38,762 nucleotides of DNA from Acidimicrobiales bacterium (lineage in GTDB: Bacteria; Actinomycetota; Acidimicrobiia; Acidimicrobiales; Palsa-688): NCBI GenBank assembly GCA_050744165.1, contig JBOGGN010000242.1, positions 1-38,762 on the forward strand, given 5' to 3'. The position numbers were made by a program, and so were the translations under genes. Shown here piece by piece: positions 11,339 through 37,783 of this stretch. A model generated the notes under the pieces. That model saw only the letters and a list, made by a program, of their open reading frames with translations. It was not told where the DNA came from and ran no database searches. The number at the start of each line of letters is the position of its first letter. Position 1 is the stretch's first letter.

Positions 11339-11364
11339 GCCCAGAGCCGGCCAGACCCGTCAGG

Positions 11365-13494: not shown

Positions 13495-13520
13495 GTTTAT
13501 AAGCCTGTCACAACTTCGCC

Positions 13521-14978: not shown

Positions 14979-14985
14979 GGGGCAA

Positions 14986-16365
14986 TCATCCGTAAACCGT
15001 GTCCGCCGCCGCCCCCGCGGGCACCACCTCAGGCGTCGAGGAGTCGTTGCTGATGCGCAGCAGCAAGGCCAAGAGGATGTAGTTGGCGATCAGGCTGCTG
15101 CCGCCGTAGCTGATGAACGGCAAGGTAATCCCGGTCAGCGGGATGATCCTGGTCACCCCGCCCACGATGACGAATACCTGGATCCCCACGACGAGCGCCA
15201 GCCCGGCGGCCAACAGCTTCTCGAAGGGGTTCTCGCAGCGCACTGCGATGCGCAAGCCGCTGCCCACCATGAGCAGGTACCCGGCCAGCACCGCCCCAGC
15301 CCCGAGTAGACCGAGCTCCTCGGCGATGGCGGCGAAGATGAAGTCGGTGGCCACCTCCGGGATGCGCTGGGGGCTGCCCTGACCGGGGCCGTCGCCGAAG
15401 ACCCCGCCCGCCGCCATGGCGAACAGGCCCTGGATGATCTGGTAGCCGGAGGTGTTGTACACCGGCCACGGGTTGAGCCACACCTGGACCCGGGACTTGG
15501 CATGGCCGATGACCTTCATGGCGACGGTGGCACCGGCCGCGAACAGCACCGCTCCCATCCCGAGGTACCAGCCTCGCCCGGTGGCGATCCACAGCATCCC
15601 GATGAACAGGGCGAAGAACAAGAAGCTCGAGCCCAGGTCGTTCTCGAAGAAGAAGATGGCCAGGGAGAGAGCCCAGGCGGCCAGCACGGGAGCGATGTAC
15701 TTCGGGTCGATCAGCAGCACGTTGCCGATCTTGCGGGTGCCGCGGGCCAGCATCTCGCGTCGCTCCGCCATGTACGAGGCGAAGAAGATGGCCAGGGCGA
15801 TCTTGGCCAGCTCGCCCGGCTGGAAGGTGATCCCGGCCACGCGGATCCACAAGCGGGCCCCGTTGATGTTCTGCCCGATCACCGGCAGCAGCGGCATGAG
15901 TAAGAGCCCGATGCCGCCCAGGGCGAAGAGGTAGCGGTAGCGCTCCAGGTCCCGGGCCCGGCGGACCACGACCAAGGTGGCCAAGAAGGCGCCGATGCCG
16001 ATCGCCGTCCACAGCGCCTGCAGGGCAGCCAGCTGGCTGTTCAGCCGGGCGATGAACACGTAGCCGAGCCCGTTCAGCAGCGCCGCCGTGGGCAGGAGCA
16101 CCGGGTCGGCGTAGGGGGCCAGCTTGCGCATGCCGACGTGGGCCACCAAGAGAAGGCCGCAGACGATGATCAGGAAGGGGCCGATGTTGGCGGGCAGGGA
16201 TCCCGACTTGCCGAGGCTGGCCAGCACGTACAGCCCACCAGTCAGGACCACGGCCAGCACCATGAGCCCCAGCTCGGTGCGCCGCCGGGCCGGCTGGCGG
16301 TAGTTGGGGTCGGCGACGATCGGCAACTCAGCGCCGGTCGCGAACATCCGGGGTCGCCAGCTCAC
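14986..16365 (-). CDS. rodA: SEDS-family peptidoglycan glycosyltransferase RodA/FtsW
   Basis: A 10-TM SEDS protein with conserved blocks (PGELAKIALAIFFASY, DFIFAAIAEELG, TLPFISYGGSS). It sits between pstP and pbpA, as in the conserved cluster. Confidence 0.9.
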   Translation of the reverse strand: MSWRPRMFATGAELPIVADPNYRQPARRRTELGLMVLAVVLTGGLYVLASLGKSGSLPANIGPFLIIVCGLLLVAHVGMRKLAPYADPVLLPTAALLNGLGYVFIARLNSQLAALQALWTAIGIGAFLATLVVVRRARDLERYRYLFALGGIGLLLMPLLPVIGQNINGARLWIRVAGITFQPGELAKIALAIFFASYMAERREMLARGTRKIGNVLLIDPKYIAPVLAAWALSLAIFFFENDLGSSFLFFALFIGMLWIATGRGWYLGMGAVLFAAGATVAMKVIGHAKSRVQVWLNPWPVYNTSGYQIIQGLFAMAAGGVFGDGPGQGSPQRIPEVATDFIFAAIAEELGLLGAGAVLAGYLLMVGSGLRIAVRCENPFEKLLAAGLALVVGIQVFVIVGGVTRIIPLTGITLPFISYGGSSLIANYILLALLLRISNDSSTPEVVPAGAAADTVYG

Positions 16366-16404
16366 GGCGTCACGGGGGCGCAGGGGGGGCGCCGGTTCAC
16401 GACG

Positions 16405-17703
16405 TCAGGGGGCAGGGACGGTGGTCGTCGTTGCCGGCGGTGGCACCGTGGTGGTGGTCGGCGGCAGCGTGGTGGTGGTGGTGGTCGTGGTCGCTTCGGC
16501 GGCGAGGCTCGCGACGTAGCTCTTGGCGGCGGGAACGGATGGTTCTTCTTTCCCGGAGCGCAGGTCGGGCAACCGTTCGGGCAGGACCTGGTTGGCGGCG
16601 GTGGCGGTGCGCTGGACGATGGTTGGCTGGAACCAAAGCAGGCCGCCAGGGCGGCCCTTGTAGATGGTGAGTTGGCCGTTGTCCAACCCGACGAAGTACG
16701 AGCCGCGGGCGTAGAACGCGATGGCGACGCCGGCGCCGGCGATCAGCAACACCAGGATGACGAAAAAACCTACGACCCGCCAGGTGACGGCGCGCTGGCG
16801 GGGCGGGGCGGGCGGGGTCTCCTTCGGTGGGGGGCCGACACGCCCCGACCAGCCGGTGGGGGGGGAGGGGGCGCTTTTTCCCGCTTCTTTTTCGGGGTGG
16901 GAAAATGCCTCGGGGATCGGTGTCGCCCGTCGCGTGGGGGGGTTGGCGGCCAGTGCCGCAGAGGCCGCCTGGGGCAGGTCGTTGTCGTCCACCACGTCGA
17001 CAATCACAACCGTGATGTTGTCGTTGCCGCCCCGATCTCGGGCTTCGGCGACCAGTTCCCGGGCCGCGTCCTTGGGGTTGGCCAGGCGGCGCATGACCCC
17101 CGCCAGCTGGTCGTCGTTGAGTTCACGGACCAGGCCGTCGGAGCACAGCAGGTAACGGTCGCCCTTCAGGGGCAGGACCTGGAGGAGATCCACCTTGACG
17201 TCGGAGTCGACGCCGAGCGCCCGGGTCAGGACGTGGCGCTGGGGGTGGATGGCGGCCTCCATCTCGGTCAGCTGGCCGTCGTCGACCAGCTCCTGGACCA
17301 GGGAATGGTCGGTGGTCAGCTGTTCCAGCTCGCCGTCGCGCAGCAGGTACACCCTCGAGTCGCCCACGTTGATGATCGCCAGGCGTTCCTCGTCGTCCTC
17401 GTCGACCAGGGCGATCGCCACCAACGTGGTGCCCATGCCGTGGAACTCGGGGTTGCCCAGGGCCCGCTCGAAAATCGACCGGTTCGCCTGGCGGGCCGCC
17501 GCCACCAGGCCCTGGGCGCCGCCATTGTGGCGGTAGGCGACCTCCAACGCTTCCACCGCCGTCAACGACGCCACCTCGCCCGCCGCGTGGCCGCCCATCC
17601 CGTCGGCGACCGCGAACAACTCCTCACCCACGAGCAACTGATCCTGATTCGACGTCCGCACCCGACCCACGTCGGTCGCCGAACCCGCCGACAGGCGGAT
17701 CAC
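16405..17703 (-). CDS. pstP: PP2C-family Ser/Thr phosphatase PstP with TM segment, extracellular domain and Thr-rich tail
   Basis: Carries PP2C motifs (FAVADGMGGHAAGEVAS, DGLV, DNITVVIV). A TM helix (VVGFFVILVLLIAGAGVAIAF) and an extracytoplasmic domain follow. The product ends in ATTTTTTTTLPPTTTTVPPPATTTTVPAP. Confidence 0.9.
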   Translation of the reverse strand: MIRLSAGSATDVGRVRTSNQDQLLVGEELFAVADGMGGHAAGEVASLTAVEALEVAYRHNGGAQGLVAAARQANRSIFERALGNPEFHGMGTTLVAIALVDEDDEERLAIINVGDSRVYLLRDGELEQLTTDHSLVQELVDDGQLTEMEAAIHPQRHVLTRALGVDSDVKVDLLQVLPLKGDRYLLCSDGLVRELNDDQLAGVMRRLANPKDAARELVAEARDRGGNDNITVVIVDVVDDNDLPQAASAALAANPPTRRATPIPEAFSHPEKEAGKSAPSPPTGWSGRVGPPPKETPPAPPRQRAVTWRVVGFFVILVLLIAGAGVAIAFYARGSYFVGLDNGQLTIYKGRPGGLLWFQPTIVQRTATAANQVLPERLPDLRSGKEEPSVPAAKSYVASLAAEATTTTTTTTLPPTTTTVPPPATTTTVPAP

Positions 17704-18221
17704 GCCGCCACCTCCAGCACCGACCGGCCCACCTGCAGGCGGTCCCCGGGGCCGAGGGGGATGGGGCTGGTAACGGGGCGGTCGTTCACGAAGGTGCCGT
17801 TGGTCGATCCCAGATCCTCCACGTAGAGCGACCCGTCGCGGCGGAACACTCGGGCGTGGAGGGTCGACACGAAGGTGTCGTCGGGCAGGGAGATGCCGCA
17901 GCCCAACGCCCGGCCGAGGGTCAGCTCCTCACCCAGGGGAAAGCTCTGGCCGGCTCGGTCCGGGGGCTCGAGGACGACCAACCGGGCCAAACCTGTCGCC
18001 GCCCCGCGACCCCCGGTCCCTGGGGCCCAGCTCCCAGCCGGACCACGCCCCGCCTTCGCCGTCTGGCGGGGCGAAGGTTGCGGGGACGGGGACGCCACTG
18101 CAACCTGCACCGCTCTCGGTTCCCGGAGCTCCACCCAGACCGCCCGGATGACCCGAAAAAAGAACAGGTAGAGCAGGCCCAGGAACACCGCCTTCAAGGC
18201 CGTCAACAGGGACTCGGGCAT
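17700..18221 (-). CDS. fhaB: FHA domain protein FhaB/FipA (N-terminal TM helix plus C-terminal FHA)
   Basis: Has an N-terminal TM helix and a C-terminal FHA domain (GR...DD..VS..HA.......YVEDLGSTNGTFVN). The stop overlaps the pstP start. Confidence 0.8.
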   Translation of the reverse strand: MPESLLTALKAVFLGLLYLFFFRVIRAVWVELREPRAVQVAVASPSPQPSPRQTAKAGRGPAGSWAPGTGGRGAATGLARLVVLEPPDRAGQSFPLGEELTLGRALGCGISLPDDTFVSTLHARVFRRDGSLYVEDLGSTNGTFVNDRPVTSPIPLGPGDRLQVGRSVLEVAA

Positions 18222-18234
18222 GGCGCCAGCCCCC

Positions 18235-18888
18235 CTATGGGGCTTCGAACCTCATGTGGGTGGCGCCGACGGTGATGTCGTCACCGTCGACCAACCGGTG
18301 GCTGTGGACCCCGATCCCATTCACCTTGGTGCCGTTGGTACTACCCAGGTCGACCAGCACGTAGCCGCCGTCGTTGGTGGGGCGCACCTCCACGTGGCGA
18401 CGGCTGCAGTTGGCGTCGGTCAGCACCACGTCACACTCGGGGAGCCGCCCGATCGTGAGCGAGGTGCTGCCGAGGGGGTGGCGGCTGCCGTCGGGCAGGA
18501 CCAGCCGGGCCGGCGCCCCAGTCGTGGCCCGAACCTCGCCGACCACCTCAAGGATCCCCGCCGACAGCTGGTCGTCGCTGGTCAACTCCACCTCGACGGG
18601 ACCGAGGAACACGTAGTTCTCGACCCGTGCGTGCTCCTTGGCCACCCCGACCAACTCGCTCACCAGCTCCGACTCGAACGGCTCGAACCGGGACCGGTCG
18701 GCAGGGCTGACCACCACGGTGAAGTAGTTCGGGGTCAGAGTGCCTCGGGGAGCCACGGTGCGCAACAGGTCCATCTCCCGGGTGAGGCGGCGCCCGATCT
18801 CAACCGGCTGCAAGCCGCTACGGAACGCCTTGGCGAAGGCGCCCTCAACGAGTCGCTCGAGCCGTCGCTCGAACTGCTGCAGTCCCAT
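18235..18888 (-). CDS. fhaA: FhaA (DUF3662 N-domain plus C-terminal FHA domain)
   Basis: The N-terminus MGLQQFERRLERLVEGAFAKAF is typical of FhaA. The C-terminal FHA reads TIGRLPECDVVLTD..SRRHVEV......VLVDLGSTNGTKVN. Confidence 0.8.
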   Translation of the reverse strand: MGLQQFERRLERLVEGAFAKAFRSGLQPVEIGRRLTREMDLLRTVAPRGTLTPNYFTVVVSPADRSRFEPFESELVSELVGVAKEHARVENYVFLGPVEVELTSDDQLSAGILEVVGEVRATTGAPARLVLPDGSRHPLGSTSLTIGRLPECDVVLTDANCSRRHVEVRPTNDGGYVLVDLGSTNGTKVNGIGVHSHRLVDGDDITVGATHMRFEAP

Positions 18889-19005: not shown

Positions 19006-19089
19006 GGGCGAGTGGCGGAATAGGCAGACGCGCAGGATTCAGGTTCCTGTGTCCGCAAGGACGTGGGGGTTCAAGTCCCCCCTCGCCCA
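19006..19089 (+). tRNA. tRNA-Leu: tRNA-Leu (anticodon CAG), type II with long variable arm
   Basis: The sequence is GGGCGAG/TGGCGGAATAGGCAGACGCGC/CAGGA-TTCAGGT-TCCTG/variable arm/GGGGG-TTCAAGT-CCCCC/CTCGCCC-A. It has a 7-bp acceptor stem and a canonical T-loop, with CAG at anticodon positions 34-36. CCA is not encoded. Confidence 0.85.
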
Positions 19090-19128
19090 CTCCCGACAGG
19101 CCGTCAGGGTTAGGGGTCTTCCGGTCCC

Positions 19129-21302: not shown

Positions 21303-21541
21303 GTCGGGTATGACGAGTCTTGGCGATGTGGGCGAATGTTAACTATCGACAGAGTTACCATAGCGGTTTATATATATTGTCCGTTCTATCTCGACAGATC
21401 CCATGGGCATTAGTAAGGTATGACCGCTTTAGGCGGGAGCCAAGCAACAGGGGGAGGAACCCTAAATCGTTATCGATAGACGGGGACCATCTCCGTCGGT
21501 TCGTGTTGCACACCTCGAACCAGGGTCTGAAGGAGCGCTTC
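21303..21541. promoter_or_regulatory. AT-rich divergent promoter/operator region between SBP gene and giant surface-protein gene
   Basis: A local GC drop includes a TA-rich block TTTATATATATT (21367-21378). Three copies of TATC(T)CGA(C/T)AGA lie at 21345, 21387 and 21471, spaced 42 and 84 bp. The third copy sits in the palindrome TATCGATA. A GAAGGAG SD lies 6 nt before the ATG at 21542. Confidence 0.45.
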
Positions 21542-24500
21542 ATGGGGCATGAGGGACAGCATCGGCGGCGGAGTTCGGTCGCGCGGCGGACACTCCAAGG
21601 CGCCCTGGGCCTGGCGATCGCGGTGGTGCCTTTCGTGGTCACCATTCCCGACGCCTTCGCCGGCGTTGGCTTCGGCGTGGTGCCTACCTTCCCCTCCGTG
21701 GTGACCGTCGGCCAGACGGGGCTTCCCGCCAACCTGACCATCCAGAACACATCCACCACGCCCGACAACGCCTCGAACGTCACGTTGAGCACGATCGACC
21801 TCGTTCCCGCGTGCGGCACGACGTTCGGTACCGCCCCCATCAACGATTGCCCGATCGCCAACGCCGATCCCGGGGTCTTCACCCTGAGTCCGACCGGCAC
21901 GGGCCAGGCGGGGACCGCCTGCGCCGGCACCACGTTCACCATTACCACCGTCGACCCCGCCACCGGGCAGGTCAGTTTCAGCCCCAGCACTCCGGTGGTC
22001 CTGCAACCGCCGGGGACGGGCCCCGGCGGCGCGCTGGCCGAGTGTGTCATCGACTTCACCTTCACCGTCAACATGGGCCCGACCCACGTCGATGCCAACG
22101 GTCAGGTCGACCAGCTGGGTTTCGCCAGTGGCACCAACACCTTGGGCCACACCGGCTCCGGTGCGGGAAGCAGCGCCGTCACCGTCAACCTGGCGACCCT
22201 CGGGATCACCACCTCGGCCACCTCGACGGCGACCGTCGGCGGCGGCATCACCGACACCGCCACGGTGTCGGCGGCCGCACCGCCCGGGCCGGCGCCGACG
22301 GGAACGATCACCTTCACCGCCTTCACCAACAGCACCTGCTCGGGGGCGCCCGCGTTCACGTCCAACGCCATCACGGTCACCGGCACCGGCAACTACACCT
22401 CTACCCCTCCGTTCGTGACGACCGCGCCCGGCAGTGTGTTCTGGATCGCGTCGTACAGCGGCGACGTCAGCAACGCCCCGGTGGCAACCCACTGCGGTGA
22501 CGCCGGCGAGACCACCACCGTCAACCAAGCGGTGCCTACCATCGTGACCGCCGCCTCGACGACCGCCACCATCGGCGGCCCCATCTCCGACAGCGCCGTC
22601 CTGGCCAACGGCCTCAACCCGACGGGCACCATCACCTTCACCGCATTCGGCCCCGGCAACGCGACCTGCACCGCGCCGGCGGCGTTCACCTCGGCCCCGT
22701 TGGCGGTGGCCGGCAACGGAACCTACATGTCGGGGCCCTTCACCCCGACCACGCCCGGCACCTACCTGTGGGTGGCCTCCTACAGCGGTGACACCAACAA
22801 CGCCGCGGTGGCCACCCCTTGCGGCGACATGGGCGAAACCAGCACGGTCAACAAGGCCACGCCGGCCATCGTGACGACGGCCTCCGGCTCGGGTCCGGTA
22901 GGCAGTGTCATCTCCGACAGCGCCGTGCTCTCGGGAGGCGTCGACACCCCGACCGGCACCATCACCTTCAACGTATTCGGTCCCGACAACGCGAGCTGCA
23001 CGGGTGCGCCGGTGTTCACCTCGACGGCGACGGTGAACGGCAACGGGACCTACAGCTCGTCGATGTTCACCACCACCGCCGCCGGGACCTACCTGTTCGT
23101 GGCCAGTTACAGCGGTGACGCCAACAACAACGCCGTCGCCAGCGCCTGCGGAGCAGCCAACGAGAGTGTGACCATCACCAAGGCCTCCCCGGCGATCGCC
23201 ACCACCCCCTCGCCGTCGGTCACCGCGGGCGGGTTGGTCTCCGACAGCGCCACCTTGTCCTCGGGCGTCAACCCGACGGGGACCATCACCTTCACCCTGT
23301 TCGGCCCCGGCAACCCGACCTGCACCGGGGCGGCGATCTTCACCTCCACGGCGTCGGTGAACGCCGGCAACGGGGTCTACAACTCGGCCGCCTTCACCAC
23401 CACCACGCCCGGCACCTACAACTGGGTGGCCTCGTATTCCGGCGACGCCAACAACAACGCGGTGGCCAGCACCTGCGCGTCGGAGACGGTGGTGGTCACC
23501 CAGGCCCACCCGACGATCATGACTCAGGCGTCGGCGTCGGTCCCGGTGGGCGGGACGATCACCGACACCGCCACCCTCGCAGGCGGGGTGTCGCCGACGG
23601 GGACGATCACCTTCAGCATCTTCGCCCCCGGCAACCCCACGTGCGCGGGGGCGCCGGTCGCCACCTCGATGGTGCCCGTCACGGGCAACGGCAACTACGT
23701 CTCGGCCCCGTTCACCACCACCGCGGTCGGCACCTACATGTTCGTGGTGATCTACAGCGGCGACACCGCCAACGCCAGCGCCACCAGCGCCTGCGGCGCC
23801 GCCAACGAGGCCGTCACCACCACCCAGGCCACGCCGACGATCGCCACCACGCCCTCGGTGTCGGTGCCCGTCGGGGGCGCCGTGTCCGACAGCGCCACCC
23901 TGGCCAACGGGCTCAGCCCGACCGGCAGCATTACCTTCACGCTGTTCGGCCCCGGCAACCCGACGTGCACCGGAGCCCAGGTGTTCACGTCCAATCCGAT
24001 CCCCGTCACCGGCAACGGCACGTACACCTCCAACACCTTCACCGCCACCATGGCGGGCTCCTACAACTGGATCGCGACCTACAGCGGCGACGCCAACAAC
24101 CACTCGGTGGCCAGCACCTGCGCCTCAGAGACGGTGGTGGTGACGACCACCACCCCCAAGATCGTGACCAACGCATCGCTGACGGTCCCCGTCGGCGGCA
24201 CCATCTCCGACACCGCCACCCTGTCCAACGGGGTCAACCCGACGGGGACCATCACCTTCGACGTGTTCGGCCCCAACGACGCCACCTGCTCGACGGTGCC
24301 GGCGTTCACATCGGTGGTCTCGGTTACCTCCGGCAACGGCACCTACTCCTCGGGACCGTTCACGGCCGTCATGGCGGGGACGTACCGGTTCGTGGCCATG
24401 TATTCGGGCGACGCCAACAACGCAGCGGTGACCACGATGTGCAACGACCCCAACGAGAGCGTGGTCGTTACGACCGTCACCCCGTCGCTCAGCACGACCG

Positions 24501-27500
24501 CGTCGGCGTCGGTCGCGGTAAGCGGGACTGTGAGCGACACCGCCATCCTGTCGGGCGGGTCCAACCCCACGGGGACCATTACCTTCGAGCTGTTCGGGCC
24601 GGTGGCGGGCTGCACCGGCGCCCCGATCTTCACCGCCACCAAGCCGGTGACCGGCGACGGCGCCTACTCGTCGGGCACCTTCACCCCGACCGCCCCGGGC
24701 ACCTACAACTTCGAGGCGTCCTACAGCGGCGATGCCAACAACAACGCCATCCCCCTGACCGCCTGCGGGGCGGCGGGCGAGAACGTGACCGTGACCCCGG
24801 CCACCCCGGCCATCGTCACCATGGCCTCGGCGTCGGTGGCGGCCGGGGGCACGATCAGTGACACTGCCACCCTGACCGGTGGCGACGCCCCCACGGGGAC
24901 CATCACTTTCACCGTCTATGGGCCGGGCAATACGACGTGCGCCGGGACCGGGGTCGCCAGCCACACGGTGGCGGTCACCGGCGACGGCAGCTACGCCTCG
25001 GGCAGCTTCCCCGCCGCCATCGCGGGCACCTACCGGTTCATCGCGGCCTACAGCGGCGACGCCAACAACTCGGCGGAGTCGACGGGCTGCAACGACGCCA
25101 ACGAGAGCGTGGTGGTGACCCCCGCCGCCCCGACACTCGTCACCCATGCCTCCTCGACGGTCGCTGCGGGCGGCACGATCCAGGACACGGCGACCCTGTC
25201 CGGTGGCGCCTCCCCGATGGGCACCATCACCATCACTTTGTTCGGCCCCAACAACGCCGCCTGCACCGGCACCCCGATCCAGTCGACGACCGACCCGGTG
25301 AACGGCGACGGCGACTACACCTCGACGCCGTTCGTCGTCAACGCGGCCGGCACCTACCAATACGTTGCCGTGTATGGCGGTGACGCCAACAACGCAGGTG
25401 CCACCAGCGCCTGCGGCGCGGCCAACGAGTCGGTGGTGGTGACGCCGGCGGCGCCCACCATCGCGACCCAGGCGTCGGCGCCGGTGGCGGTCGGCAACCC
25501 GATCACCGACGTCGCCACGCTCTCGGGCGGGGACAACCCGACGGGGACCATCACCTTCAACGTGTTCGGCCCCCACAACGCCACCTGCACCGGCGCCCCG
25601 GTGTTCTCCTCGACGATGGCGGTAACCGGCGACGGCAACTACACCTCCAACCCGTTCACGCCCACCATGGCGGGCACCTATCGGTTCGTCGACAGCTACT
25701 CCGGTGACGCCAACAACGCTCCCACCGCGTCCGCGTGCGGCGCGGCCAACGAGTCGGTGGCGGTCGGCGTCGCCAGCCCCACGATCGTGACTACGGCGTC
25801 GGCGCCGGTGGTGGCGGGCGGCAACATCAGCGACATCGCCGTCCTCTCCGGCGGGGTGACGCCGAGCGGGACGATCACCTTCGATGTGTTCGGACCCAAC
25901 AACGCCACCTGCACCGGCGCCCCCTTGTTCACCTCGACGGTCCCGGTGGCCGGCAATGGCAGCTATGCGTCGGCGCCGTTCACCACGACCTTGGCGGGCA
26001 CCTACCAGTTCGTCGCCTCCTACAGCGGAGATGCCAACAACGGCGCCGTGACCAGCGCCTGTGATGCCGCCAACGAGAGCGTCGTGGTGGCCAAGGCGGG
26101 CCCGGCCATCGCCACCCAGGCCTCGGCTCCGGTGACGGTGGGCGGCGCCATCAGCGACAGCGCGACCCTGTCGGGCGGCACCGGGCCGTCGGGCACCATC
26201 ACCTTCCAGGTCTTCGGCCCCAACAACGCCACCTGCACCGGCGCCGCGGCATTCACGTCCAGCGTCACCGTCGCCGGCAACGGCACCTACGCGTCGATGA
26301 GCTTCACGCCGACCCAGCCCGGGACGTACCGCTTCGTGGCCACCTACGGCGGCGACGCCAACAACGCCGCCGCCGGACCCACCTCATGCGGGGACCCGGC
26401 CGAGTCGACGGTGGTATCGCCCGGCGCCACGACCATCGTCACCAAGGTGTCGGGGTCGACGACCGTCGGCGGGACGATCACCGACACTGCCACCCTGGCG
26501 GGCGGGGTCAACCCGACCGGGACCATCACCTTCCAGGTGTTCGGGCCCAACAACGCCACCTGCACCGGCATCCCGGCGTTCACCTCGACGGTGCCCGTGA
26601 CCGGCAACGGCAACTACACCTCGGCAACCTTCACCGTGCCCGGGGCTGGGACCTACGGTTTCGTGGCCACCTACAGCGGTGACACCGCCAACAGCCCCGC
26701 TGGTCCCACCGCCTGCTCGGATCCCAACGAGACGACGACGGCGACCAAGGTGTCGCCGACCATCTCCACCATGGCGTCGCCCACCGGCACTGTTGGCGGC
26801 GCCATCACCGACACCGCCACCCTGACGGGGGGCTTCAACCCCACCGGGACCATCACCTTCCAGGTCTTCGGGCCCAACAACACGACCTGCACCGGCGCCC
26901 CGGCGGCGACCTCGACGGCGCCGGTCAGCGGGTCGGGCAACTACACCTCGGCGCCGTTCTCCCCGACTGCGCCCGGGAGCTACCAGTTCGTGGCCACCTA
27001 CGGCGGTGACGCCAACAACAACGCCGCCGGCCCGACAGCGTGCAACGACCCAGCGGAAACAGCGACGGTGACCCCCTCGGCGGTCACCTTCTCGACGACC
27101 GCGTCCCCATCGGCCGACGTGGGCCAGCCCATCTTCGACACCGCCGATCTGACCGGCAGCGGCACCCCGACCGGGACGATCACCTACAACCTCTTCGGCC
27201 CCAACAACGCCACCTGCACCGGTGCGCCGGCGTTTACCACCACCGTCAACGTGAACGGCTCGGGGATGTACACCTCGGCAAGTTTCACCCCGACCGCAGC
27301 CGGCACCTACGAGTGGGTGGACACCTATAGCGGCGACGCCACCACCGCCCCGGCCGGGCCGACGCCGTGCAACGACGCCGCCGAGTCCGTGGTGGTGCTG
27401 CCGACGCCGCAGATCGCGGTGACCAAGGCCGCCAACCCGACCAGCGAACCCGAGCCGGGCGGCAACTTCACCTTCACCGTCACCGTCAGCAATCCCTCGA

Positions 27501-29737
27501 CGGTTGACCCAGTGATGATCACTTCTTTGGTGGACAACATCTACGGCAACCTGGCCACCCTGCCCGGTTCAACCTGCGGCACCCTCATCGGCATCACCCT
27601 TCCGCCGGGGGCGACCACGCCGCCGTGCACGTTCACCGGAGCCTTCAACGGAAGGGCGCCTGCCTCCCAGACCGACACCGTCACGGTCACCGGCGTCGAC
27701 TCCCACGGCATCACCGTCACCGCCACGGCCATGGCGACGGTCACCCTGACCCCGGTCCTGCCGACCATCAGTGTCACCAAGGCGGCCAACCCGCCCAGCC
27801 TGCCGGCGCCCGGAGGCACGTTCACCTTCACCGTCCAAGTCCACAACCCCAACACGGTGGACCCGATCACCATCACCTCGCTGGTGGACAACATCTACGG
27901 TGACCTCTCCACCCGGGCCGGCTCAACCTGCGGCGCCCTGATCGGCGTCACCCTGGCACCCGGCGCCACCTCCTCGCCGTGCACCTTCACCGGCCCCTTC
28001 ACCGGGGTGTCCGGAGCCACCCAGACCGACACCGTCACTGTGACCGGCATGGACAGCAACGGCAACAAGGCCACCGCCACCGCCAACGCCACCGTCGCCC
28101 TGACACCGGGGCTGATGCCGGTGATCAGCGTCAGCAAGGCGGCCAACCCCCTAACCCTGCCGGCGCCCGGCGGCACCTTCACCTTCACGGTCCAGGTGAC
28201 CAATCCGAGCACGACCGACCCGATCACGATCACCTCGTTGGTGGACAACATCTACGGTGACCTGTCCACCCGGGCCGGGTCGACCTGCGGCGCCCTGATC
28301 GGCGTCACCCTGGCTCCCGGCGCCACCTCTTCGCCGTGCACCTTCACCGGCCCCTTCACCGGGGTGTCCGGGGCCAGCCAGACCGACACCGTCACGGTGA
28401 CCGGCATGGACAGCAATGGCAACACGGCCACCGCAACGGCCATGGCCACCGTCTCCCTGACGCCGGCCATCACGCCCGAGATCAGCGTGACCAAGGCGGC
28501 CAGCCCGGCCACCCTGCCGGCACCGGGTGGGACGTTCACCTTCACGGTGCAGGTCCACAACCCGAGCACCGTCGATCCGGTGACGATCACCTCGCTGGTG
28601 GACAACATCTACGGCGACCTCTCGACGATCACCGGCTCGACCTGCGGCGCCCTGATCGGCGTCACCCTGGCTCCTGGCGGCACGTCGGCGCCGTGTACCT
28701 TCCCGGGTTCGTTCACGGGCAACTCGGGTGCCAGCCAGACCGACACGGTCACGGTGACCGGCAAAGACAGCAACGGCAACACGGTCACCGCTACCGCCAA
28801 CGCCACCGTGTCGCTGACGCCCGGTCCCACGCCTCAGATCAGCGTCAGCAAAACGGCCGACCCGCTGAGCAAGCCAGCCCCCGGCGGAACATTCACCTTC
28901 ACAGTGGAGGTGACCAACCCAAGCACGACCGACCCGATCACCATCACCTCGCTGGTGGACAACATCTACGGCGACCTGACGAAGATCTCCGGCTCCACCT
29001 GTGGCGCCCTGATCGGCGTGACACTGGCACCCGGCGCCTCCTCGGCCCCGTGCACCTTCCCGGGCTCGTTCACGGGCAAGTCGGGCGACAGCCAGACGGA
29101 CACGGTGACCGCCACCGGCAAGGACACCAACGGCACGACAGTGACCGCGACGGCCATGGCGACCGTCACGCTGACCCCGCCGGCGCCCACGACCACCACG
29201 TCGACCTCGACGACCTCGACGACCTCGACCACGGCGACGTCCGCCCCGCCCGCGACGCCGGTGATCGCGGTCACCAAGGCCGCCAACCCCATCAGCCTTT
29301 CGGCGCCAGGCGGTACGTTCATCTTCACGGTGGTCGTGTCCAACCCGAGCACGACCGTCCCGGTCAAGATCACCTCGCTGGTGGACAACATCTACGGCGA
29401 CCTGACGAAGATCTCCGGCTCGACCTGCGGAACCCTGATCGGCGTCACGCTCAGCCCCGGCCAGAGCTCCTCGCCGTGCAGCTTCCCGGGGAGTTTCACC
29501 GGATCGGGTGGCGATACCCAGACCGACACGGTGACCGTCACCGGGGTCAACCCGGCTAACCCGTCCGGTACCCCGGTCACCGCCACCGCCAAGGCGACGG
29601 TCAGCATCATCGCCGCCACGTCGACGCCACTCGCCCTGACCGGCTTGGACGACCGGCGACCGCTGACGATCGGCTTTGGGCTCATCGCCGCCGGCCTGCT
29701 GGTTCTGGCGCTGTGCTGGCGCCGGCGCCTCAACTGA
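21542..29737 (+). CDS. Giant (2731 aa) cell-surface repeat protein: signal peptide, N-terminal domain, 16 Ig-like repeats, 6 DUF11-like repeats, LALTG sortase-type anchor
   Basis: The ATG at 21542 has an AAGGAG SD. The signal peptide is ALGLAIAVVPFVVTIPDAFA. Sixteen ~108-aa repeats match ...PTGTITF.(V/L)FGP.N..CTG.P.FTS...V.GNG.Y.S..FT....GTY.FVA.YSGD.NN......CG..NE.V.V. Six ~122-aa repeats match TFTFTV.V.NPSTVDPITITSLVDNIYGDL....STCG.LIGVTLAPG....CTF.G.F.G.....QTDTVTVTG.D..G. A Thr/Ser linker follows. The C-terminus reads LALTG-LDDRRPLTIG-FGLIAAGLLVLALCW-RRRLN. Confidence 0.85.
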   Translation: MGHEGQHRRRSSVARRTLQGALGLAIAVVPFVVTIPDAFAGVGFGVVPTFPSVVTVGQTGLPANLTIQNTSTTPDNASNVTLSTIDLVPACGTTFGTAPINDCPIANADPGVFTLSPTGTGQAGTACAGTTFTITTVDPATGQVSFSPSTPVVLQPPGTGPGGALAECVIDFTFTVNMGPTHVDANGQVDQLGFASGTNTLGHTGSGAGSSAVTVNLATLGITTSATSTATVGGGITDTATVSAAAPPGPAPTGTITFTAFTNSTCSGAPAFTSNAITVTGTGNYTSTPPFVTTAPGSVFWIASYSGDVSNAPVATHCGDAGETTTVNQAVPTIVTAASTTATIGGPISDSAVLANGLNPTGTITFTAFGPGNATCTAPAAFTSAPLAVAGNGTYMSGPFTPTTPGTYLWVASYSGDTNNAAVATPCGDMGETSTVNKATPAIVTTASGSGPVGSVISDSAVLSGGVDTPTGTITFNVFGPDNASCTGAPVFTSTATVNGNGTYSSSMFTTTAAGTYLFVASYSGDANNNAVASACGAANESVTITKASPAIATTPSPSVTAGGLVSDSATLSSGVNPTGTITFTLFGPGNPTCTGAAIFTSTASVNAGNGVYNSAAFTTTTPGTYNWVASYSGDANNNAVASTCASETVVVTQAHPTIMTQASASVPVGGTITDTATLAGGVSPTGTITFSIFAPGNPTCAGAPVATSMVPVTGNGNYVSAPFTTTAVGTYMFVVIYSGDTANASATSACGAANEAVTTTQATPTIATTPSVSVPVGGAVSDSATLANGLSPTGSITFTLFGPGNPTCTGAQVFTSNPIPVTGNGTYTSNTFTATMAGSYNWIATYSGDANNHSVASTCASETVVVTTTTPKIVTNASLTVPVGGTISDTATLSNGVNPTGTITFDVFGPNDATCSTVPAFTSVVSVTSGNGTYSSGPFTAVMAGTYRFVAMYSGDANNAAVTTMCNDPNESVVVTTVTPSLSTTASASVAVSGTVSDTAILSGGSNPTGTITFELFGPVAGCTGAPIFTATKPVTGDGAYSSGTFTPTAPGTYNFEASYSGDANNNAIPLTACGAAGENVTVTPATPAIVTMASASVAAGGTISDTATLTGGDAPTGTITFTVYGPGNTTCAGTGVASHTVAVTGDGSYASGSFPAAIAGTYRFIAAYSGDANNSAESTGCNDANESVVVTPAAPTLVTHASSTVAAGGTIQDTATLSGGASPMGTITITLFGPNNAACTGTPIQSTTDPVNGDGDYTSTPFVVNAAGTYQYVAVYGGDANNAGATSACGAANESVVVTPAAPTIATQASAPVAVGNPITDVATLSGGDNPTGTITFNVFGPHNATCTGAPVFSSTMAVTGDGNYTSNPFTPTMAGTYRFVDSYSGDANNAPTASACGAANESVAVGVASPTIVTTASAPVVAGGNISDIAVLSGGVTPSGTITFDVFGPNNATCTGAPLFTSTVPVAGNGSYASAPFTTTLAGTYQFVASYSGDANNGAVTSACDAANESVVVAKAGPAIATQASAPVTVGGAISDSATLSGGTGPSGTITFQVFGPNNATCTGAAAFTSSVTVAGNGTYASMSFTPTQPGTYRFVATYGGDANNAAAGPTSCGDPAESTVVSPGATTIVTKVSGSTTVGGTITDTATLAGGVNPTGTITFQVFGPNNATCTGIPAFTSTVPVTGNGNYTSATFTVPGAGTYGFVATYSGDTANSPAGPTACSDPNETTTATKVSPTISTMASPTGTVGGAITDTATLTGGFNPTGTITFQVFGPNNTTCTGAPAATSTAPVSGSGNYTSAPFSPTAPGSYQFVATYGGDANNNAAGPTACNDPAETATVTPSAVTFSTTASPSADVGQPIFDTADLTGSGTPTGTITYNLFGPNNATCTGAPAFTTTVNVNGSGMYTSASFTPTAAGTYEWVDTYSGDATTAPAGPTPCNDAAESVVVLPTPQIAVTKAANPTSEPEPGGNFTFTVTVSNPSTVDPVMITSLVDNIYGNLATLPGSTCGTLIGITLPPGATTPPCTFTGAFNGRAPASQTDTVTVTGVDSHGITVTATAMATVTLTPVLPTISVTKAANPPSLPAPGGTFTFTVQVHNPNTVDPITITSLVDNIYGDLSTRAGSTCGALIGVTLAPGATSSPCTFTGPFTGVSGATQTDTVTVTGMDSNGNKATATANATVALTPGLMPVISVSKAANPLTLPAPGGTFTFTVQVTNPSTTDPITITSLVDNIYGDLSTRAGSTCGALIGVTLAPGATSSPCTFTGPFTGVSGASQTDTVTVTGMDSNGNTATATAMATVSLTPAITPEISVTKAASPATLPAPGGTFTFTVQVHNPSTVDPVTITSLVDNIYGDLSTITGSTCGALIGVTLAPGGTSAPCTFPGSFTGNSGASQTDTVTVTGKDSNGNTVTATANATVSLTPGPTPQISVSKTADPLSKPAPGGTFTFTVEVTNPSTTDPITITSLVDNIYGDLTKISGSTCGALIGVTLAPGASSAPCTFPGSFTGKSGDSQTDTVTATGKDTNGTTVTATAMATVTLTPPAPTTTTSTSTTSTTSTTATSAPPATPVIAVTKAANPISLSAPGGTFIFTVVVSNPSTTVPVKITSLVDNIYGDLTKISGSTCGTLIGVTLSPGQSSSPCSFPGSFTGSGGDTQTDTVTVTGVNPANPSGTPVTATAKATVSIIAATSTPLALTGLDDRRPLTIGFGLIAAGLLVLALCWRRRLN
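22190..27400 (+). repeat. Coding tandem array: 16 diverged ~325-bp units (Ig-like domain repeats) inside the giant gene
   Basis: The unit containing TGTITF and YSGDANN recurs 16 times with ~50-70% aa identity. Antisense ORFs with ~330-bp periodicity in the six-frame track are echoes of this array. Confidence 0.85.
27401..29610 (+). repeat. Coding tandem array: 6 ~365-bp units (DUF11-like conserved repeat domain), two copies near-identical
   Basis: ITSLVDNIYGDL occurs six times. The units starting near 27830 and 28190 are almost identical at protein level (ITITSLVDNIYGDLSTRAGSTCGALIGVTLAPGATSSPCTFTGPFTGVSGA). A Thr/Ser linker at about 29180-29260 separates units 5 and 6. Confidence 0.8.
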
Positions 29738-29777: not shown

Positions 29778-29819
29778 AACCCGCAACCCGCAACCCGCAA
29801 CCCGCAGCCCGGCAGCCCA
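29778..29819. repeat. Heptanucleotide microsatellite (AACCCGC)x4 plus two degenerate copies in convergent intergenic region
   Basis: The sequence aacccgc aacccgc aacccgc aacccgc agcccgg cagccc is read directly. Confidence 0.8.
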
Positions 29820-29993: not shown

Positions 29994-32906
29994 CTACTGC
30001 GAGCGGCGCGGTAGTCGCCGCCGCCGGCGCCAGGTGACGCCCAGGCTGAGCAGGCCGGCCAGGATGAGCATGCCACCGGCGATGGTCGGGTCCTGGATCC
30101 GTGCCCCGGTGAGCGACAGCGAGGAGGTCGCGGTCGTCGTCGTGGTCCCCGAGCCAGTGGGCGCTGCGGTCACGGTGATCGAGACCTGCGCCCTCAGCGA
30201 GGCATCGGCCGTGCTGGCAACGATCGTGTGCTGGCCGGGCGCGGTGGCCGCGGGAATGACAACGGTGGCCGCAAAGTTCCCGAGAGAGTTTGCCGTCGCC
30301 ATTCCGAGCGACACCGGGCTGCTGAGAAGGTCCATCTGGAGTTCGCTGCCGGCCGGGAAGCCGCTGCCGGTGACCATGGTCGGCTGGCCAGCCGGCACGG
30401 AATTGGGGTTCACCTGAACCGTCGGAGTACCTGTGGTGGTGGTGGTTGCCCCCAGCGTGCTCGACGTTGTCGAAGAGCTCGTGGTCGAGGATCTCGTCGT
30501 GGTCGTTGTCGACCCGACTGTCGAGGATGTGGTTGACCCCACTGTCGTGGTTGTCGTCGGGGCAGTGGTGGTGCTGCTGGTCGTGCTGCTCGAGGTCGTG
30601 CTGCTCGAGGTGGTGGTCGCACTCACCGTGACCGTCTCGGCGGCCTCACCGCAGGCGGTGGGCCCAGCCGGGAGGGAGTCTGGGTCGCCGTCGTAGGACG
30701 CCAGCCACTGATAGGTACCAACAGCGGTCGAAATGAACGGCTCTGAGGTGTAGCTGCCGTCACCATTGACTGTCACCGTGGTGCTGAAGGCGGCGGTCCC
30801 GGTGCAGGCGGCGTCACCGGGGCCGAAAAGGTTGAAGGTGATTGTCCCGGTCGGCGAAAAGCCGCCAGTGAGGGCAGCCGTGTCGCTCACCGAGCCGCCG
30901 ACGGTCACTGATGCCGAGGCATGAGTGGAGATCGAGGTTGAGGCCCTGATCACGCTGAGGTGTTCGTTGACCGCCCCGCAGGCACTGGTCACGGGGTTGT
31001 TGTTGCTGTCCCCGCTGTAGACGGCGGTCCACAGGTAGTCACCCACCTTTTCGGTGGCGAAGGAATCCGAGTCGTACGAGCCGTTGCCGTTGACCCGCAC
31101 GACCGCAGTGAACGCTGGCGTCGCAGAGCAGGTTTGGTCGTTCGGACCGAACAGGCTGAAGGTGATCGATCCGGTGGGGATGCGACCGCCCGACAGCGCG
31201 GCCGAGTCGCTGACCGATCCACCCACCGCGACCGTCGGGGACGCCATCGTCGCGATTGTCGGCGTGGCCATCGCCAGCACCGTGGTCGTCGTGGGTCCTG
31301 TGGTGGTTGTGGTCGGGCCGGTGGTGGTTGTGGTCGGGCCGGTGGTGGTTGTCGTCGTCGCCGGGAGCGTGGTGGTGGTGGTCGAGGTGGTTGTGGTTGT
31401 TGGGCCGGTTGTGGTTGTGGTGGTTGCCGGGACCGTGGTCGTGGTGGTGGTGGTGCTCGTAGAGGTCGTCGTCGTACTGGTACTGCTTGACGTGGTGGTC
31501 GTGGAGCTGACGATGACCGTCTCGGCGGCGTCGCCGCAGGTGGTGGGCCCTGCTGGGTTAGAGTTGGCGTCGCCGCTGTACGACGCCACCCATTCGTACG
31601 TGCCGGCAGCGGTGGTGGTGAAGAGGCTCGACATGTAGTTGCCGTCGCCGTTGACGGACACCGTGTTGCTGAACGTCACGGTCCCGCTGCAGGTCGGGTC
31701 GCCCGGGCCAAAGAGGTCGAACGTGATGGTTGCGGAGGGCGAGAAACCTCCGGTGAGGGTGGCGGTGTCGCTGATAGAGCCGCCGACGGTGACCGAGGCT
31801 GATGCGTGCGTAGAGATGGTGGTGTTGGCTTTGGTCACTGTCACCGATTCATTCGCCGCGTTGCAGGCGCTGGTCACCGGGTTGTTGTTGCCGTCACCGC
31901 TGTAAGCCGCCGTCCATTGGTAGTTGCCGGTCGACACGGCCACGAAGCTCTCCGAGGAGTAGGTGCCGTTGCCGGAGACCGGCACCATGGCGGTAAAGGC
32001 CGGCGTCGCCGAGCAGTTGGCGTCGTCCGGGCCGAAGAGAATAAAGGTGATCGTGCCGGTGGGCGTGTTCCCGTCCAGGAGAGAGGCGGTGTCACTCACC
32101 GATCCGCCCACGGCCACCGATGCCGAGGCCGCGGTCGTCAGAATGGGCGTCGACGCAGCCGGCGATACCGTCACCTTCTCGTTGCTGTCGAGACAGTTGA
32201 TGTCCGACACAGCCAGGTTGTTACCGTCGCCGCTGTAGGACGCCGTCCACACGTAGGTACCGGTTGTCGTCGGGAAAAAGGGAGCCGACGGGTACATGGC
32301 GTTACCCAGATTCACGGGCACCGAGGTGGTGAAGCTCGGCGCAGTTTGGGCTTGGCAGGCGGCCACGGAGGCCCATAGGTCAAAGGTGATCGTGCCGGTG
32401 GGGCTGACACCCCCGGCCAGTTTGGCGCTGTCGTCGATCGAGCCGCCCACGGCAACGCCGGCCGACGCGGTGGTGGTGAGCACCGGCGCCACTTGGCCCA
32501 CGATCGTCGATTCGGGAGCGTCCGAACACGAGGTCGGTCCGACCGGATTGTTGTTGCCGTCACCGCTGTAGGTGACCTGCCACCGGTAGGTGCCTGCCTG
32601 GCTGGTGGTGAAGCTGGTTGAGTCGTAACTGCCATCGCCCGAGACCGGCACCATCGAGGTGAACGGCGGCGTACCAGCGCAGGTGGAGTTGTCCGGACCA
32701 AATAAGTCGAAAGTCAGCGTGCCCGTCGGCGCGGATCCACCAGACAGATCGATGACATCGAAGATTGCAAGTCCTACCGTCGTGTCGGGGGAGGCGACCG
32801 ATGAAATCGAGGGCGTCGCCAATGCCAACGCCGGCGTCGCAACCGTCCCCACACAGAGGCACGCGAGCGCGACGGCCCCAATGACGCCCCCGAGCCTCCT
32901 GAGCAC
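29994..32906 (-). CDS. 970-aa cell-surface repeat protein, paralog of the giant protein: 6 Ig-like repeats, Thr-rich linkers, terminal Ig-like domain, LSLTG anchor signal
   Basis: The signal peptide is MLRRLGGVIGAVALACLCVGTVATPALALA. The same PTGTITF...YSGDGNN repeat family occurs six times. There are two long Thr/Ser/Gly-Pro linkers. The C-terminus reads LSLTG-ARIQDPTIAGG-MLILAGLLSLGVTW-RRRRRLPRRSQ. Only 36 bp separate it from the upstream gene on the same strand. Confidence 0.85.
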   Translation of the reverse strand: MLRRLGGVIGAVALACLCVGTVATPALALATPSISSVASPDTTVGLAIFDVIDLSGGSAPTGTLTFDLFGPDNSTCAGTPPFTSMVPVSGDGSYDSTSFTTSQAGTYRWQVTYSGDGNNNPVGPTSCSDAPESTIVGQVAPVLTTTASAGVAVGGSIDDSAKLAGGVSPTGTITFDLWASVAACQAQTAPSFTTSVPVNLGNAMYPSAPFFPTTTGTYVWTASYSGDGNNLAVSDINCLDSNEKVTVSPAASTPILTTAASASVAVGGSVSDTASLLDGNTPTGTITFILFGPDDANCSATPAFTAMVPVSGNGTYSSESFVAVSTGNYQWTAAYSGDGNNNPVTSACNAANESVTVTKANTTISTHASASVTVGGSISDTATLTGGFSPSATITFDLFGPGDPTCSGTVTFSNTVSVNGDGNYMSSLFTTTAAGTYEWVASYSGDANSNPAGPTTCGDAAETVIVSSTTTTSSSTSTTTTSTSTTTTTTTVPATTTTTTGPTTTTTSTTTTTLPATTTTTTGPTTTTTGPTTTTTGPTTTTVLAMATPTIATMASPTVAVGGSVSDSAALSGGRIPTGSITFSLFGPNDQTCSATPAFTAVVRVNGNGSYDSDSFATEKVGDYLWTAVYSGDSNNNPVTSACGAVNEHLSVIRASTSISTHASASVTVGGSVSDTAALTGGFSPTGTITFNLFGPGDAACTGTAAFSTTVTVNGDGSYTSEPFISTAVGTYQWLASYDGDPDSLPAGPTACGEAAETVTVSATTTSSSTTSSSTTSSTTTAPTTTTTVGSTTSSTVGSTTTTTRSSTTSSSTTSSTLGATTTTTGTPTVQVNPNSVPAGQPTMVTGSGFPAGSELQMDLLSSPVSLGMATANSLGNFAATVVIPAATAPGQHTIVASTADASLRAQVSITVTAAPTGSGTTTTTATSSLSLTGARIQDPTIAGGMLILAGLLSLGVTWRRRRRLPRRSQ
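31290..31352. repeat. 21-bp tandem repeat (2 perfect + 1 degenerate copy) encoding a GPTTTTT linker repeat in the 970-aa surface protein gene
   Basis: The unit ggtcgggccggtggtggttgt lies at 31311-31331 and 31332-31352, with a degenerate copy at 31290-31310. Confidence 0.75.
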
Positions 32907-32942: not shown

Positions 32943-33905
32943 TTAGTAGGCGTCGATGTCGCCGGTCGTCCCGATTGCAATATGGGGCCCGGCCCCCGGT
33001 TGGAGCCATTGGAGCAACGCAATCAGGTCGGATGAAGGAAGGCTTACACAACCGTTGGTGGGCCTACCTAACGATACGTGGAGAAAAATAGCCGAACCCC
33101 TCCCAGGAACGACCGGGCTGGCGTTGTATTCGATAACCGCGAAGTAGTCATATGCCGGCGCTTCGGTCCACAAGGCCTCGCTCCCGCCTCCGAAGGGATT
33201 CTCGGTGCTGCAGGAACCAACGTGCTGGAAGGTGTTGTACTCCGGCGAGGATGGCTCCTCGTCCCACCAGTCGCCGCAGACCAGGACGTGGTAGCTGCCG
33301 TGAACACCAGGGTTGGGGTCGATGCCGTAGAACGTCGAGCCGATGCCGAACAGCCCGATCGGGGAGGTGCCGTCGCCTTCAATCTTGTCGCTGCTCAGTC
33401 CGTGGAGGCCGACCCAGCCTGACCACGGTCCCCCTGCCACGGTCCAGCAGGTCCCGGTCCGTTGCCACAAGGTCACGACCGCAGTGGTGGCCGCGGTGGA
33501 ACTGGCCACGACGGTCACCAACTGGCTGCCGCCGCCCGTGGCCTTCATCTGATTGGCGGGCGTGGCGGTGCAGGCCGCGGCGGTGGTGCTGACAGGGGCG
33601 GCGATCGTGGTCTGCACGCGCTGGGCAGTGGTCGTAGTCGCGGCCTGCGCCGTCGTCGGGGCGGCGAGGCTTGTCGTGCTGGCGATCGCGGGCACCGTCG
33701 AGGAGGTGGTGGTCGTTGCCGTCGTCACCGAGGTGGTGGCGGCCAGCGTGGTGCTCGATTGCAGGTGGGCAGCACCGGAGGTCCTCGCGCCACCACATGC
33801 GGCGGTCGCCAGCAGGGTCGCCACCGCGGCCCAAGCTCTCGTCCGGCGACGGCGTGCTGCCGGCGGCGTTTCCCACGGGCGAGGGGCGGTGGGTGACCGG
33901 TTCAT
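32943..33905 (-). CDS. L,D-transpeptidase (YkuD-fold) family lipoprotein with Thr-rich linker
   Basis: The lipobox is LLATAAC. After a Thr/Ala-rich linker comes a YkuD-like core: GDGTSPIGLFGI, then FLHVS...GRPTNGCVSLPSSDLIALLQWL (compare ...H.S....SHGC[VI][RN][LV] in known Ldt). Asn replaces the His usually preceding the catalytic Cys. Confidence 0.6.
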   Translation of the reverse strand: MNRSPTAPRPWETPPAARRRRTRAWAAVATLLATAACGGARTSGAAHLQSSTTLAATTSVTTATTTTSSTVPAIASTTSLAAPTTAQAATTTTAQRVQTTIAAPVSTTAAACTATPANQMKATGGGSQLVTVVASSTAATTAVVTLWQRTGTCWTVAGGPWSGWVGLHGLSSDKIEGDGTSPIGLFGIGSTFYGIDPNPGVHGSYHVLVCGDWWDEEPSSPEYNTFQHVGSCSTENPFGGGSEALWTEAPAYDYFAVIEYNASPVVPGRGSAIFLHVSLGRPTNGCVSLPSSDLIALLQWLQPGAGPHIAIGTTGDIDAY

Positions 33906-37128: not shown

Positions 37129-37134
37129 GCCAAG

Positions 37135-37710: not shown

Positions 37711-37783
37711 AAGCCCTTCTCTTGCTGTCCCGTAACAACCAACACAACGTCAGCCCAGCTAGTTCCAGCCCTTTGGAGGAGTT

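Follow-up and report, generated by a model that had tools for sequence, protein, structure and literature searches.

An uncultured Acidimicrobiales bacterium encodes a giant repeat protein with the architecture of a wall-anchored fibrillar adhesin

A complete contig of 38,762 bp from a metagenome-assembled genome (MAG), deposited at NCBI under the label Acidimicrobiales bacterium and referred to here in its full length as the window, encodes a giant repeat protein of 2731 amino acids (aa). The gene is real and intact and falls into a known class, that of wall-anchored fibrillar adhesin-like proteins, in which its length is unusual. We consider it probable that the product is exported by the Sec pathway and covalently attached to the wall of a monoderm actinobacterium as a fibre of the fibrillar adhesin type. 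A stalk of tandem repeats combined with a surface anchor characterises fibrillar adhesins, and here these parts are represented by 22 beta-sandwich units and a C-terminal sorting signal. From its N- to its C-terminus, the protein consists of a signal peptide, a head domain, 16 immunoglobulin (Ig)-like units of the Big_3_5 family, six CLIPPER-type units with a Thr/Ser linker before the sixth, and the motif LALTG followed by a transmembrane (TM) segment and the residues RRRLN. The features of the gene are listed below with their positions in the window, in nucleotides (nt).

21530..21535, + strand: ribosome-binding site AAGGAG, 6 nt 5' of the ATG, read directly from the sequence
21542..29737, + strand: complete coding sequence of the giant protein, ATG at 21542, stop codon at 29735-29737, 2731 aa
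21542..21661, + strand: signal peptide (aa 1-40) with Arg-rich n-region, hydrophobic core and AFA/G, from inspection of the translation
21662..22207, + strand: head domain (aa 41-222, ~200 aa), a beta-sandwich with 4 invariant Cys
22208..27403, + strand: Ig-like array of 16 Big_3_5 units (107-110 aa), every unit with an invariant Cys pair spaced by ~51 residues
27407..29188, + strand: CLIPPER/CLIPPER_2-type (DUF11/DUF7507) units 1-5 of ~119 aa each, with K7, D43, D90 and C57/C74 invariant
29177..29257, + strand: Thr/Ser/Pro-rich linker PPAPTTTTSTSTTSTTSTTATSAPPAT, which overlaps the last residues of unit 5 and splits off unit 6
29258..29614, + strand: CLIPPER-type unit 6, the most divergent one (65-72% aa identity to the others)
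29630..29644, + strand: LALTG motif (aa 2697-2701)
29660..29719, + strand: hydrophobic membrane-spanning stretch PLTIGFGLIAAGLLVLALCW (aa 2707-2726, 20 residues)
29720..29734, + strand: basic tail RRRLN, directly followed by the stop codon

A preliminary description made from the letters of the window had proposed this reading frame of 2731 codons, and our analysis agrees with it. The mechanically listed open reading frame (ORF) spans 21320-29737, and we chose the ATG at 21542 as the credible start because of the ribosome-binding site in front of it. The GC content at third codon positions (GC3) is 0.92, the top value among the long frames of the window, and the long antisense ORFs across the gene are the usual by-product of 69% GC. 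For the predicted mature protein, a length of ~2660 aa, a mass of 258 kDa, an isoelectric point (pI) of ~4.05 and a Thr content of 19.5% were computed from the sequence. The 239-nt leader in front of the gene (21303-21541) is relatively AT-rich and contains an 8-bp stem-loop at 21479-21497, ~30 nt before the ribosome-binding site. The 240-nt leader gave no Rfam match when riboswitches or other RNAs were sought, a sigma-70-like promoter was not found in it, and no conservation of the upstream sequence was detected among the orthologues of the giant gene.

The larger part of the stalk is formed by the Ig-like units, the number of which had been given as 16 before and was reproduced when the unit borders were set by anchoring on the motif PTGTITF. 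Big_3_5 (PF16640) matched the giant protein with 160 bits (E 2.2e-47) in 14 stretches, above the gathering cut-off of 35.5. An alignment of all 16 units has 20 invariant columns, and the invariant Cys pairs are consistent with one disulfide per unit. Pairwise identities range from 44 to 73% at the aa level and from 59 to 76% at the nt level among the Ig units, and from 65 to 88% (aa) and 69 to 87% (nt) among the CLIPPER-type units. The closest pair of all repeats, CLIPPER-type units 2 and 3, shares 88% of the aa and 87% of the nt, with 90% over 300 nt, and the remaining CLIPPER-type units are 65-84% identical in aa. Near-identity of adjacent DUF11 units, as stated in the preliminary description, was thus not found, and neither was the recent internal duplication with a risk of assembly collapse that had been deduced from it: the repeats are 59-90% identical in nt and lack long identical stretches, indicating that collapse in short-read assemblies is unlikely and that the duplications are old. 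Sequence-profile searches of the PDB with the Ig units and with the CLIPPER-type units returned matches at chance level only.

The six units next to the sorting signal had previously been called DUF11-like. Their number, their length of about 119 aa and their two invariant Cys stand, but the label fits the window's own units weakly. The best of them reached 22.1 bits (E 2e-4) against DUF11 (PF01345), below the Pfam cut-off of 24.6, and 14.2 bits (E 0.045) against DUF7507 (PF24346), below the cut-off of 27. A search with the C-terminal 779 aa retrieved 501 homologues, most of which carry precomputed DUF7507 or DUF11 matches, and among 43 diverse units cut from the homologues, 37 matched DUF7507 and 32 matched DUF11 (E<=0.01). 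We treat the window units as divergent relatives of the CLIPPER superfamily and not as clean members. DUF11 and DUF7507 were recently renamed CLIPPER and CLIPPER_2 and comprise CnaA-like stalk domains of fibrillar adhesins with an Asp-catalysed isopeptide bond between Lys and Asn, often accompanied by a disulfide, especially in Actinomycetota (PMC12617251).

The corresponding triad, consisting of a Lys in the first strand, a catalytic Asp and an Asn or Asp as partner, is present in the window units, with K7, D43 and D90 invariant in 6/6. Across 724 homologous units, the K7 position is occupied by Lys in 669 and the D43 position by Asp in 703; C57 and C74 are conserved as well. In the D90 column, Asp was found in 583 and Asn in 118 units, so that Asp at the bond-partner position is the majority form of CLIPPER-type units in this homologue group. 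The spacing in the window units is 36 residues from Lys to the catalytic Asp and 83 residues from Lys to the Asp/Asn partner; for DUF7507, spacings of 40 and 80 are listed (PMC12617251). The interchange of Asp and Asn in one column, together with these spacings, is the pattern expected of a bond-forming partner, and an isopeptide bond in the window units would link Lys to Asp. An AlphaFold2 model of one CLIPPER-type unit had a predicted local distance difference test score (pLDDT) of 97.9 and matched generic E-set sandwiches, with the CLIPPER adhesin structure 9IFR outside the top matches.

The preliminary description had not mentioned the head domain, nor two neighbours of the giant gene that are described below, a convergent paralogue of 970 aa and an exosortase-family gene. 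The head region (aa 34-244) had no match in NCBIfam or in the Pfam copy that we scanned, but a search with it retrieved 728 cluster representatives (E<=0.001). In the 70 matches that were inspected, all of which carry a leader equivalent to the signal peptide of the giant, the head was placed directly after the leader peptide, with the exception of a few fragments or duplications. What follows the head varies among the homologues: arrays of Big_3_5 units, domains of other kinds, or no more than a TM segment with an Arg tail. Four proteins with the head at their N-terminus (P0014, P0016, P0033 and P0099) have PF27177 in their precomputed Pfam lists, and this newer Pfam model, which was not part of our copy, probably covers the head domain. 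Structure prediction gave a confident model with a cohesin-like fold. The terminal position of the head suggests an adhesive role, and this abundant uncharacterised domain, found in hundreds of sequence clusters, is a candidate ligand-binding module.

The C-terminus of the giant reads PLALTG, five mostly charged residues, the 20-residue hydrophobic stretch and RRRLN, and the translation thus bears out the LALTG-type tail given in the preliminary description. Together with the N-terminal signal peptide, LAxTG, hydrophobic segment and basic tail make up the layout of a class E-type sorting signal, and the motif is kept in the orthologues: the five closest homologues (P0001, P0004, P0007, P0008 and P0021; ~70% identical) have LALTG or LAFTG, a TM segment and RRRR at their C-termini. 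LARTG, LVRTG, LPRTG, LPPTG or LPFTG are found in more distant homologues. A motif L-[A/S/P]-x-T-G that is conserved and keeps a constant spacing to a TM helix marks sortase substrates. In Actinobacteria from soil and freshwater, LAXTG is the recognition motif of class E sortases (PMC5148588), which makes anchoring of the giant by such an enzyme plausible. The NCBIfam model LAXTG_small_WW gave weak matches of 13 bits for the giant and 22.7 bits for the paralogue (cut-off 65). Pfam PEP-CTERM reached 12.4 bits (E 0.18) on the last unit plus tail, below its cut-off of 20.7, and the giant contains no PEP motif.

A different ending was observed in many related proteins, several of which are named Solirubrobacteraceae (P0009, P0011, P0012, P0017, P0027, P0035, P0063, P0069, P0076, P0079, P0083, P0093, P0098, P0152, P0161 and P0181). 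They terminate with C-x-x-P-x-[LAV]-P-x-FTG directly before the stop and have no TM segment. In one locus checked at the DNA level (L020, 4801-4833), TGA stands right behind GGC, and a convergent gene ends 12 nt further on. The ending gives the impression of a separate C-terminal motif not described before, similar to a sorting signal after cleavage.

The giant gene adjoins a conserved actinobacterial division and wall cluster (10321-18888) composed of crgA, trpG, pknB with 4 PASTA domains, pbpA, rodA, pstP, fhaB and fhaA, and a tRNA-Leu(CAG) gene (19006-19090) follows fhaA. RodA of the window is 79-82% identical to that of uncultured Acidimicrobiales and Actinomycetota MAGs. In Streptomyces, srtE genes presumably adjoin pknB; no sortase gene was found beside the pknB cluster in the present lineage, nor in a Streptomyces locus (L015) that represents a different rodA paralogue region. 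In three related loci (L002, L005 and L007), the giant gene lies beside the same solute-binding-protein gene as in the window, in L002 also with the paralogue downstream. Its counterpart in L002 covers a similar span of 8.2 kb and is broken over several frames, which may reflect either sequencing error or real decay. Close MAG relatives (L004, 2268-5242; L006, 1-2521) lack both Ig-repeat genes on an otherwise syntenic backbone; other genes occupy the gap before the ykuD gene in L004, and in L006 the solute-binding-protein gene is gone, too. In L001 (1-8400), the giant is reduced to eight CLIPPER-type units, compared with six in the window and L002, beside phage-integrase, rve/Mu-transposase and AAA_22 genes. 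This variable presence and truncation on a conserved backbone indicates that the giant locus is accessory and changeable. Surface proteins under changing selection typically show such a pattern of presence, absence and disruption, and it would be expected of an exposed surface fibre. Elsewhere in the window (1884-4675, + strand), a gene for an MBOAT O-acyltransferase is followed by a DUF459/SGNH gene, a pairing typical of polysaccharide or wall-polymer O-acylation systems.

A second surface-protein gene converges with the giant gene.

29994..32906, - strand: paralogue of 970 aa with signal peptide, 6 Big_3_5-type units, long Thr/Ser linkers, a C-terminal beta domain and LSLTG + TM + RRRRR

Gain and loss of the paralogue coincide with those of the giant gene, and a YkuD L,D-transpeptidase gene of equal orientation (32943-33905, - strand) precedes the paralogue by 36 nt. 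Its orthologues end in LSFTG. A protein search with its C-terminal 188 aa gave two weak matches only, with the tails LAATG and LPRTG, and one homologue of the C-terminal domain is named LPXTG wall-anchored protein by the Joint Genome Institute (JGI). In the gap of 256 nt between the two convergent genes, the heptamer AACCCGC is repeated 4.9 times (29778-29811). Recombination between the giant and the paralogue was considered and rejected, as their inverted homology amounts to merely 71-75% over 59-106 nt.

Further downstream, the window contains a small exosortase cassette.

36976-37128, + strand: LAxTG mini-protein of 50 aa, MYGKTAVTGVAGSGILAVTG followed by a TM segment and basic residues
37135-37710, + strand: exosortase-family gene, 191 aa, carrying the exosortase/archaeosortase signature TIGR04178
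Whole cassette: window 36976-38665 (+ strand); L002 20729-22405; L016 9838-11520; L017 2285-3923; L019 2457-3219

The 191-aa protein matched TIGR04178 with 32 bits (cut-off 23) and the XrtP, XrtS and XrtR models with 79-86 bits, under their respective NCBIfam cut-offs. With its relatives (178-191 aa), it forms a separate small subfamily near XrtR/S/P, below all NCBIfam Xrt cut-offs. Directly upstream of the exosortase-like gene, the window, L002 and three more distant contexts encode a mini-protein of 50-67 aa with an invariant LAxTG (LAVTG, LAATG, LALTG, LAFTG or LARTG), a TM segment and basic residues. The product of the gene downstream is secreted and measures about 280-295 aa (about 290 aa in the window); it has the tail AFPLEG-APIAAG + TM + PRRRA in the window and the consensus AFPL[E/A/K]G-x-PIA + TM + RRR across the cassettes. 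In L017, this tail scored 21.9 bits against the NCBIfam model PVV-CTERM (cut-off 27), and in L017, L018 and L019 a gene for a family-2 glycosyltransferase comes next. Judged by its tail, the PVV-CTERM-like protein is likely the substrate of the exosortase-like enzyme. A scan of the genome contigs with the exosortase-like protein gave no match, and a literature search on XrtP/R/S or choice-of-anchor proteins yielded nothing usable.

In the model that we favour for the giant protein, the leader peptide would be cut off following export, and LALTG, the TM segment and RRRLN would retain the protein in the membrane. Cleavage between Thr and Gly and linkage of the Thr to peptidoglycan would be the work of a housekeeping sortase, most likely one of class E. 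The wall-proximal part of the fibre would consist of the six CLIPPER-type beta-sandwiches and the Thr/Ser linker, each of the sandwiches probably being stabilised by an intramolecular Lys-Asp isopeptide bond together with one disulfide. The 16 Big_3_5 domains, probably with one disulfide each, would lengthen the fibre by several tens of nm, as estimated from typical domain sizes, and at the tip the cohesin-like, disulfide-bearing head would contact a ligand, another cell or a surface.

Several observations weigh against this model. The CLIPPER-type units of the window score below the Pfam cut-off for DUF11 and carry Asp instead of the Asn of the characterised CLIPPER domain at the bond-partner position, and the head matches no recognised adhesive family in Pfam or NCBIfam. 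The NCBIfam model LPXTG_anchor (TIGR01167) did not match the tail of the giant or of the paralogue at E<=1. As the preliminary description had said, the window holds no sortase gene: none of the 26 ORFs that were scanned matched a sortase family of Pfam or NCBIfam, and the window and 15 related loci were free of sortase genes and, in all frames, of the TLxTC motif. The window is a single contig of a MAG, and a missing sortase there carries little weight. Finally, the exosortase-family gene with its conserved LAxTG mini-protein partner lies 7.4 kb downstream of the giant gene.

The silence of the LPXTG_anchor model and the missing processing enzyme would also suit a type I membrane protein that is held by its C-terminal helix, with an uncleaved tail and LALTG as a relic. 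We regard this as unlikely, since LA[L/F]TG is conserved in orthologues that are just ~70% identical, and L[A/S/P]xTG occurs at equal spacing from the TM segment in many homologues with unrelated tails, which is unexpected for a relic. Alternatively, the L[A/S]xTG tails of the giant and its paralogue might be processed by the exosortase-family membrane protein instead of a sortase and become attached through the chemistry of that enzyme. The TIGR04178 and Xrt matches and the LAxTG mini-protein speak for it, as does the tripartite layout that exosortase signals share. However, the secreted protein directly downstream is the better candidate for a cognate substrate. The cassette was also found on three contigs (four loci, L016-L019) without any large LAxTG protein, and in L001 it is missing from the syntenic place although the LALTG and LSFTG proteins are kept, for which reasons we take it as independent of the giant. 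In addition, LAxTG is an established motif of class E sortases (PMC5148588), and distant homologues of the giant use plain LPxTG. Taken together, processing of the giant by the exosortase-like protein appears quite improbable. Because of the invariant LAxTG of the mini-protein, handling of LAxTG tails by such enzymes nevertheless stays alive as a reading: minimal exosortase-like enzymes of ~180-190 aa, constituting a new subfamily, could read LAxTG-type signals instead of or beside a sortase, including those of the giant and the 970-aa paralogue. We give this idea little probability; if it were true, the actinobacterial class E motif would be shared by two unrelated sorting machineries.

The preliminary description had left open whether the giant is an adhesin or a component resembling a surface layer (S-layer). 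The architecture supports the former, a secreted, wall-anchored and adhesin-like stalk, whereas no S-layer or SLH family was found. A role as structural component of an S-layer or sheath could be advocated on account of the very large size, the acidic pI and the richness in Thr, with linkers that may be glycosylated, and because some sheath or porin proteins of archaea contain DUF11 repeats (PMC12617251). We consider it very unlikely: the four Pfam families detected on the whole protein include none of the S-layer or SLH type, NCBIfam gave none, and the layout of head, stalk and anchor is that of a fibre. The gene is also dispensable, as it is missing in the close relatives L004 and L006 and broken in L001. 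That the gene is an assembly artefact, its repeat array having been collapsed or expanded, or a pseudogene in decay, is hardly credible. This could be suspected from the split orthologue in L002, a break in L007 and the fact that the gene index has no entry for the exact giant protein. The breaks in L002 and L007 may be assembly errors or real frameshifts of those loci, whereas the window's own gene runs through 2731 codons without a stop and with high GC3, the invariant residues are kept in 22/22 units, the signals at both ends are intact and the divergence of the repeats leaves no long identical stretches to collapse. These findings leave the current understanding unchanged; the neighbouring exosortase cassette with its LAxTG mini-protein is the more unusual item.

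A wall-anchored fibre as proposed here for the giant has its closest parallel in the CLIPPER fibrillar adhesins, e.g. B9T28_05395 of Acinetobacter silvestris (PDB 9IFR; PMC12617251). Both are long secreted proteins that combine a non-repetitive terminal part with tandem beta-sandwich repeats of the DUF11/DUF7507 superfamily as the stalk and a module for sorting or anchoring. The positions of the Lys, the catalytic Asp and the bond partner as well as an additional disulfide are common to the units of both. In contrast to 9IFR, in which the partner residue is Asn, the giant has Asp, and Asn occurs in ~16% of the homologous units. Its stalk consists mostly of Big_3_5 rather than CLIPPER domains, its CLIPPER-type units remain below the Pfam cut-off and their predicted fold did not retrieve 9IFR. 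Moreover, the giant has an LAxTG signal in place of the OmpA-like domain that serves as anchor of B9T28_05395, and a head from an uncharacterised family. Compared with cohesin modules of clostridial glycoside hydrolases and cellulosomes (e.g. 2VO8), this head is only 16% identical and the similarity is that of a generic beta-sandwich; pilin and CnaA-like domains score nearly as well. The head also differs from cohesins by two likely disulfides, and no dockerin partner is known.

With respect to anchoring, the giant resembles actinobacterial class E substrates such as the chaplins ChpA-C of Streptomyces coelicolor and SrtE-dependent proteins of Actinoplanes (PMC5148588, PMC13251363) in the combination of LAxTG, hydrophobic segment and Arg-rich tail. 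Those substrates are small hydrophobic or spore-surface proteins, whereas the giant is a repeat fibre of 258 kDa, and the class E motif is not described as LSxTG, the form used by the paralogue, in this literature (PMC5148588, PMC13251363). The same modular order of leader, head, Big_3_5 units and CLIPPER-type units, with the same kind of head, is found in uncharacterised Ig-like domain repeat proteins from MAGs of Actinomycetota, Solirubrobacteraceae and Dormibacterota (e.g. P0014, P0033 and P0099), of which P0014 and P0033 end in LPPTG + TM + an Arg-rich tail. These proteins comprise 800-1200 aa with 4-5 CLIPPER-type and few Ig units, compared with 16 + 6 units and a more than twofold greater length in the giant. 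The giant is thus a large yet ordinary case of a known type of adhesin-like fibre, the architecture of which recurs at smaller size in many MAGs of Actinomycetota and Dormibacterota, and it extends the fibrillar adhesin design of head, Ig-like stalk, isopeptide-type domains and sortase-type anchor to uncultured soil Acidimicrobiales.

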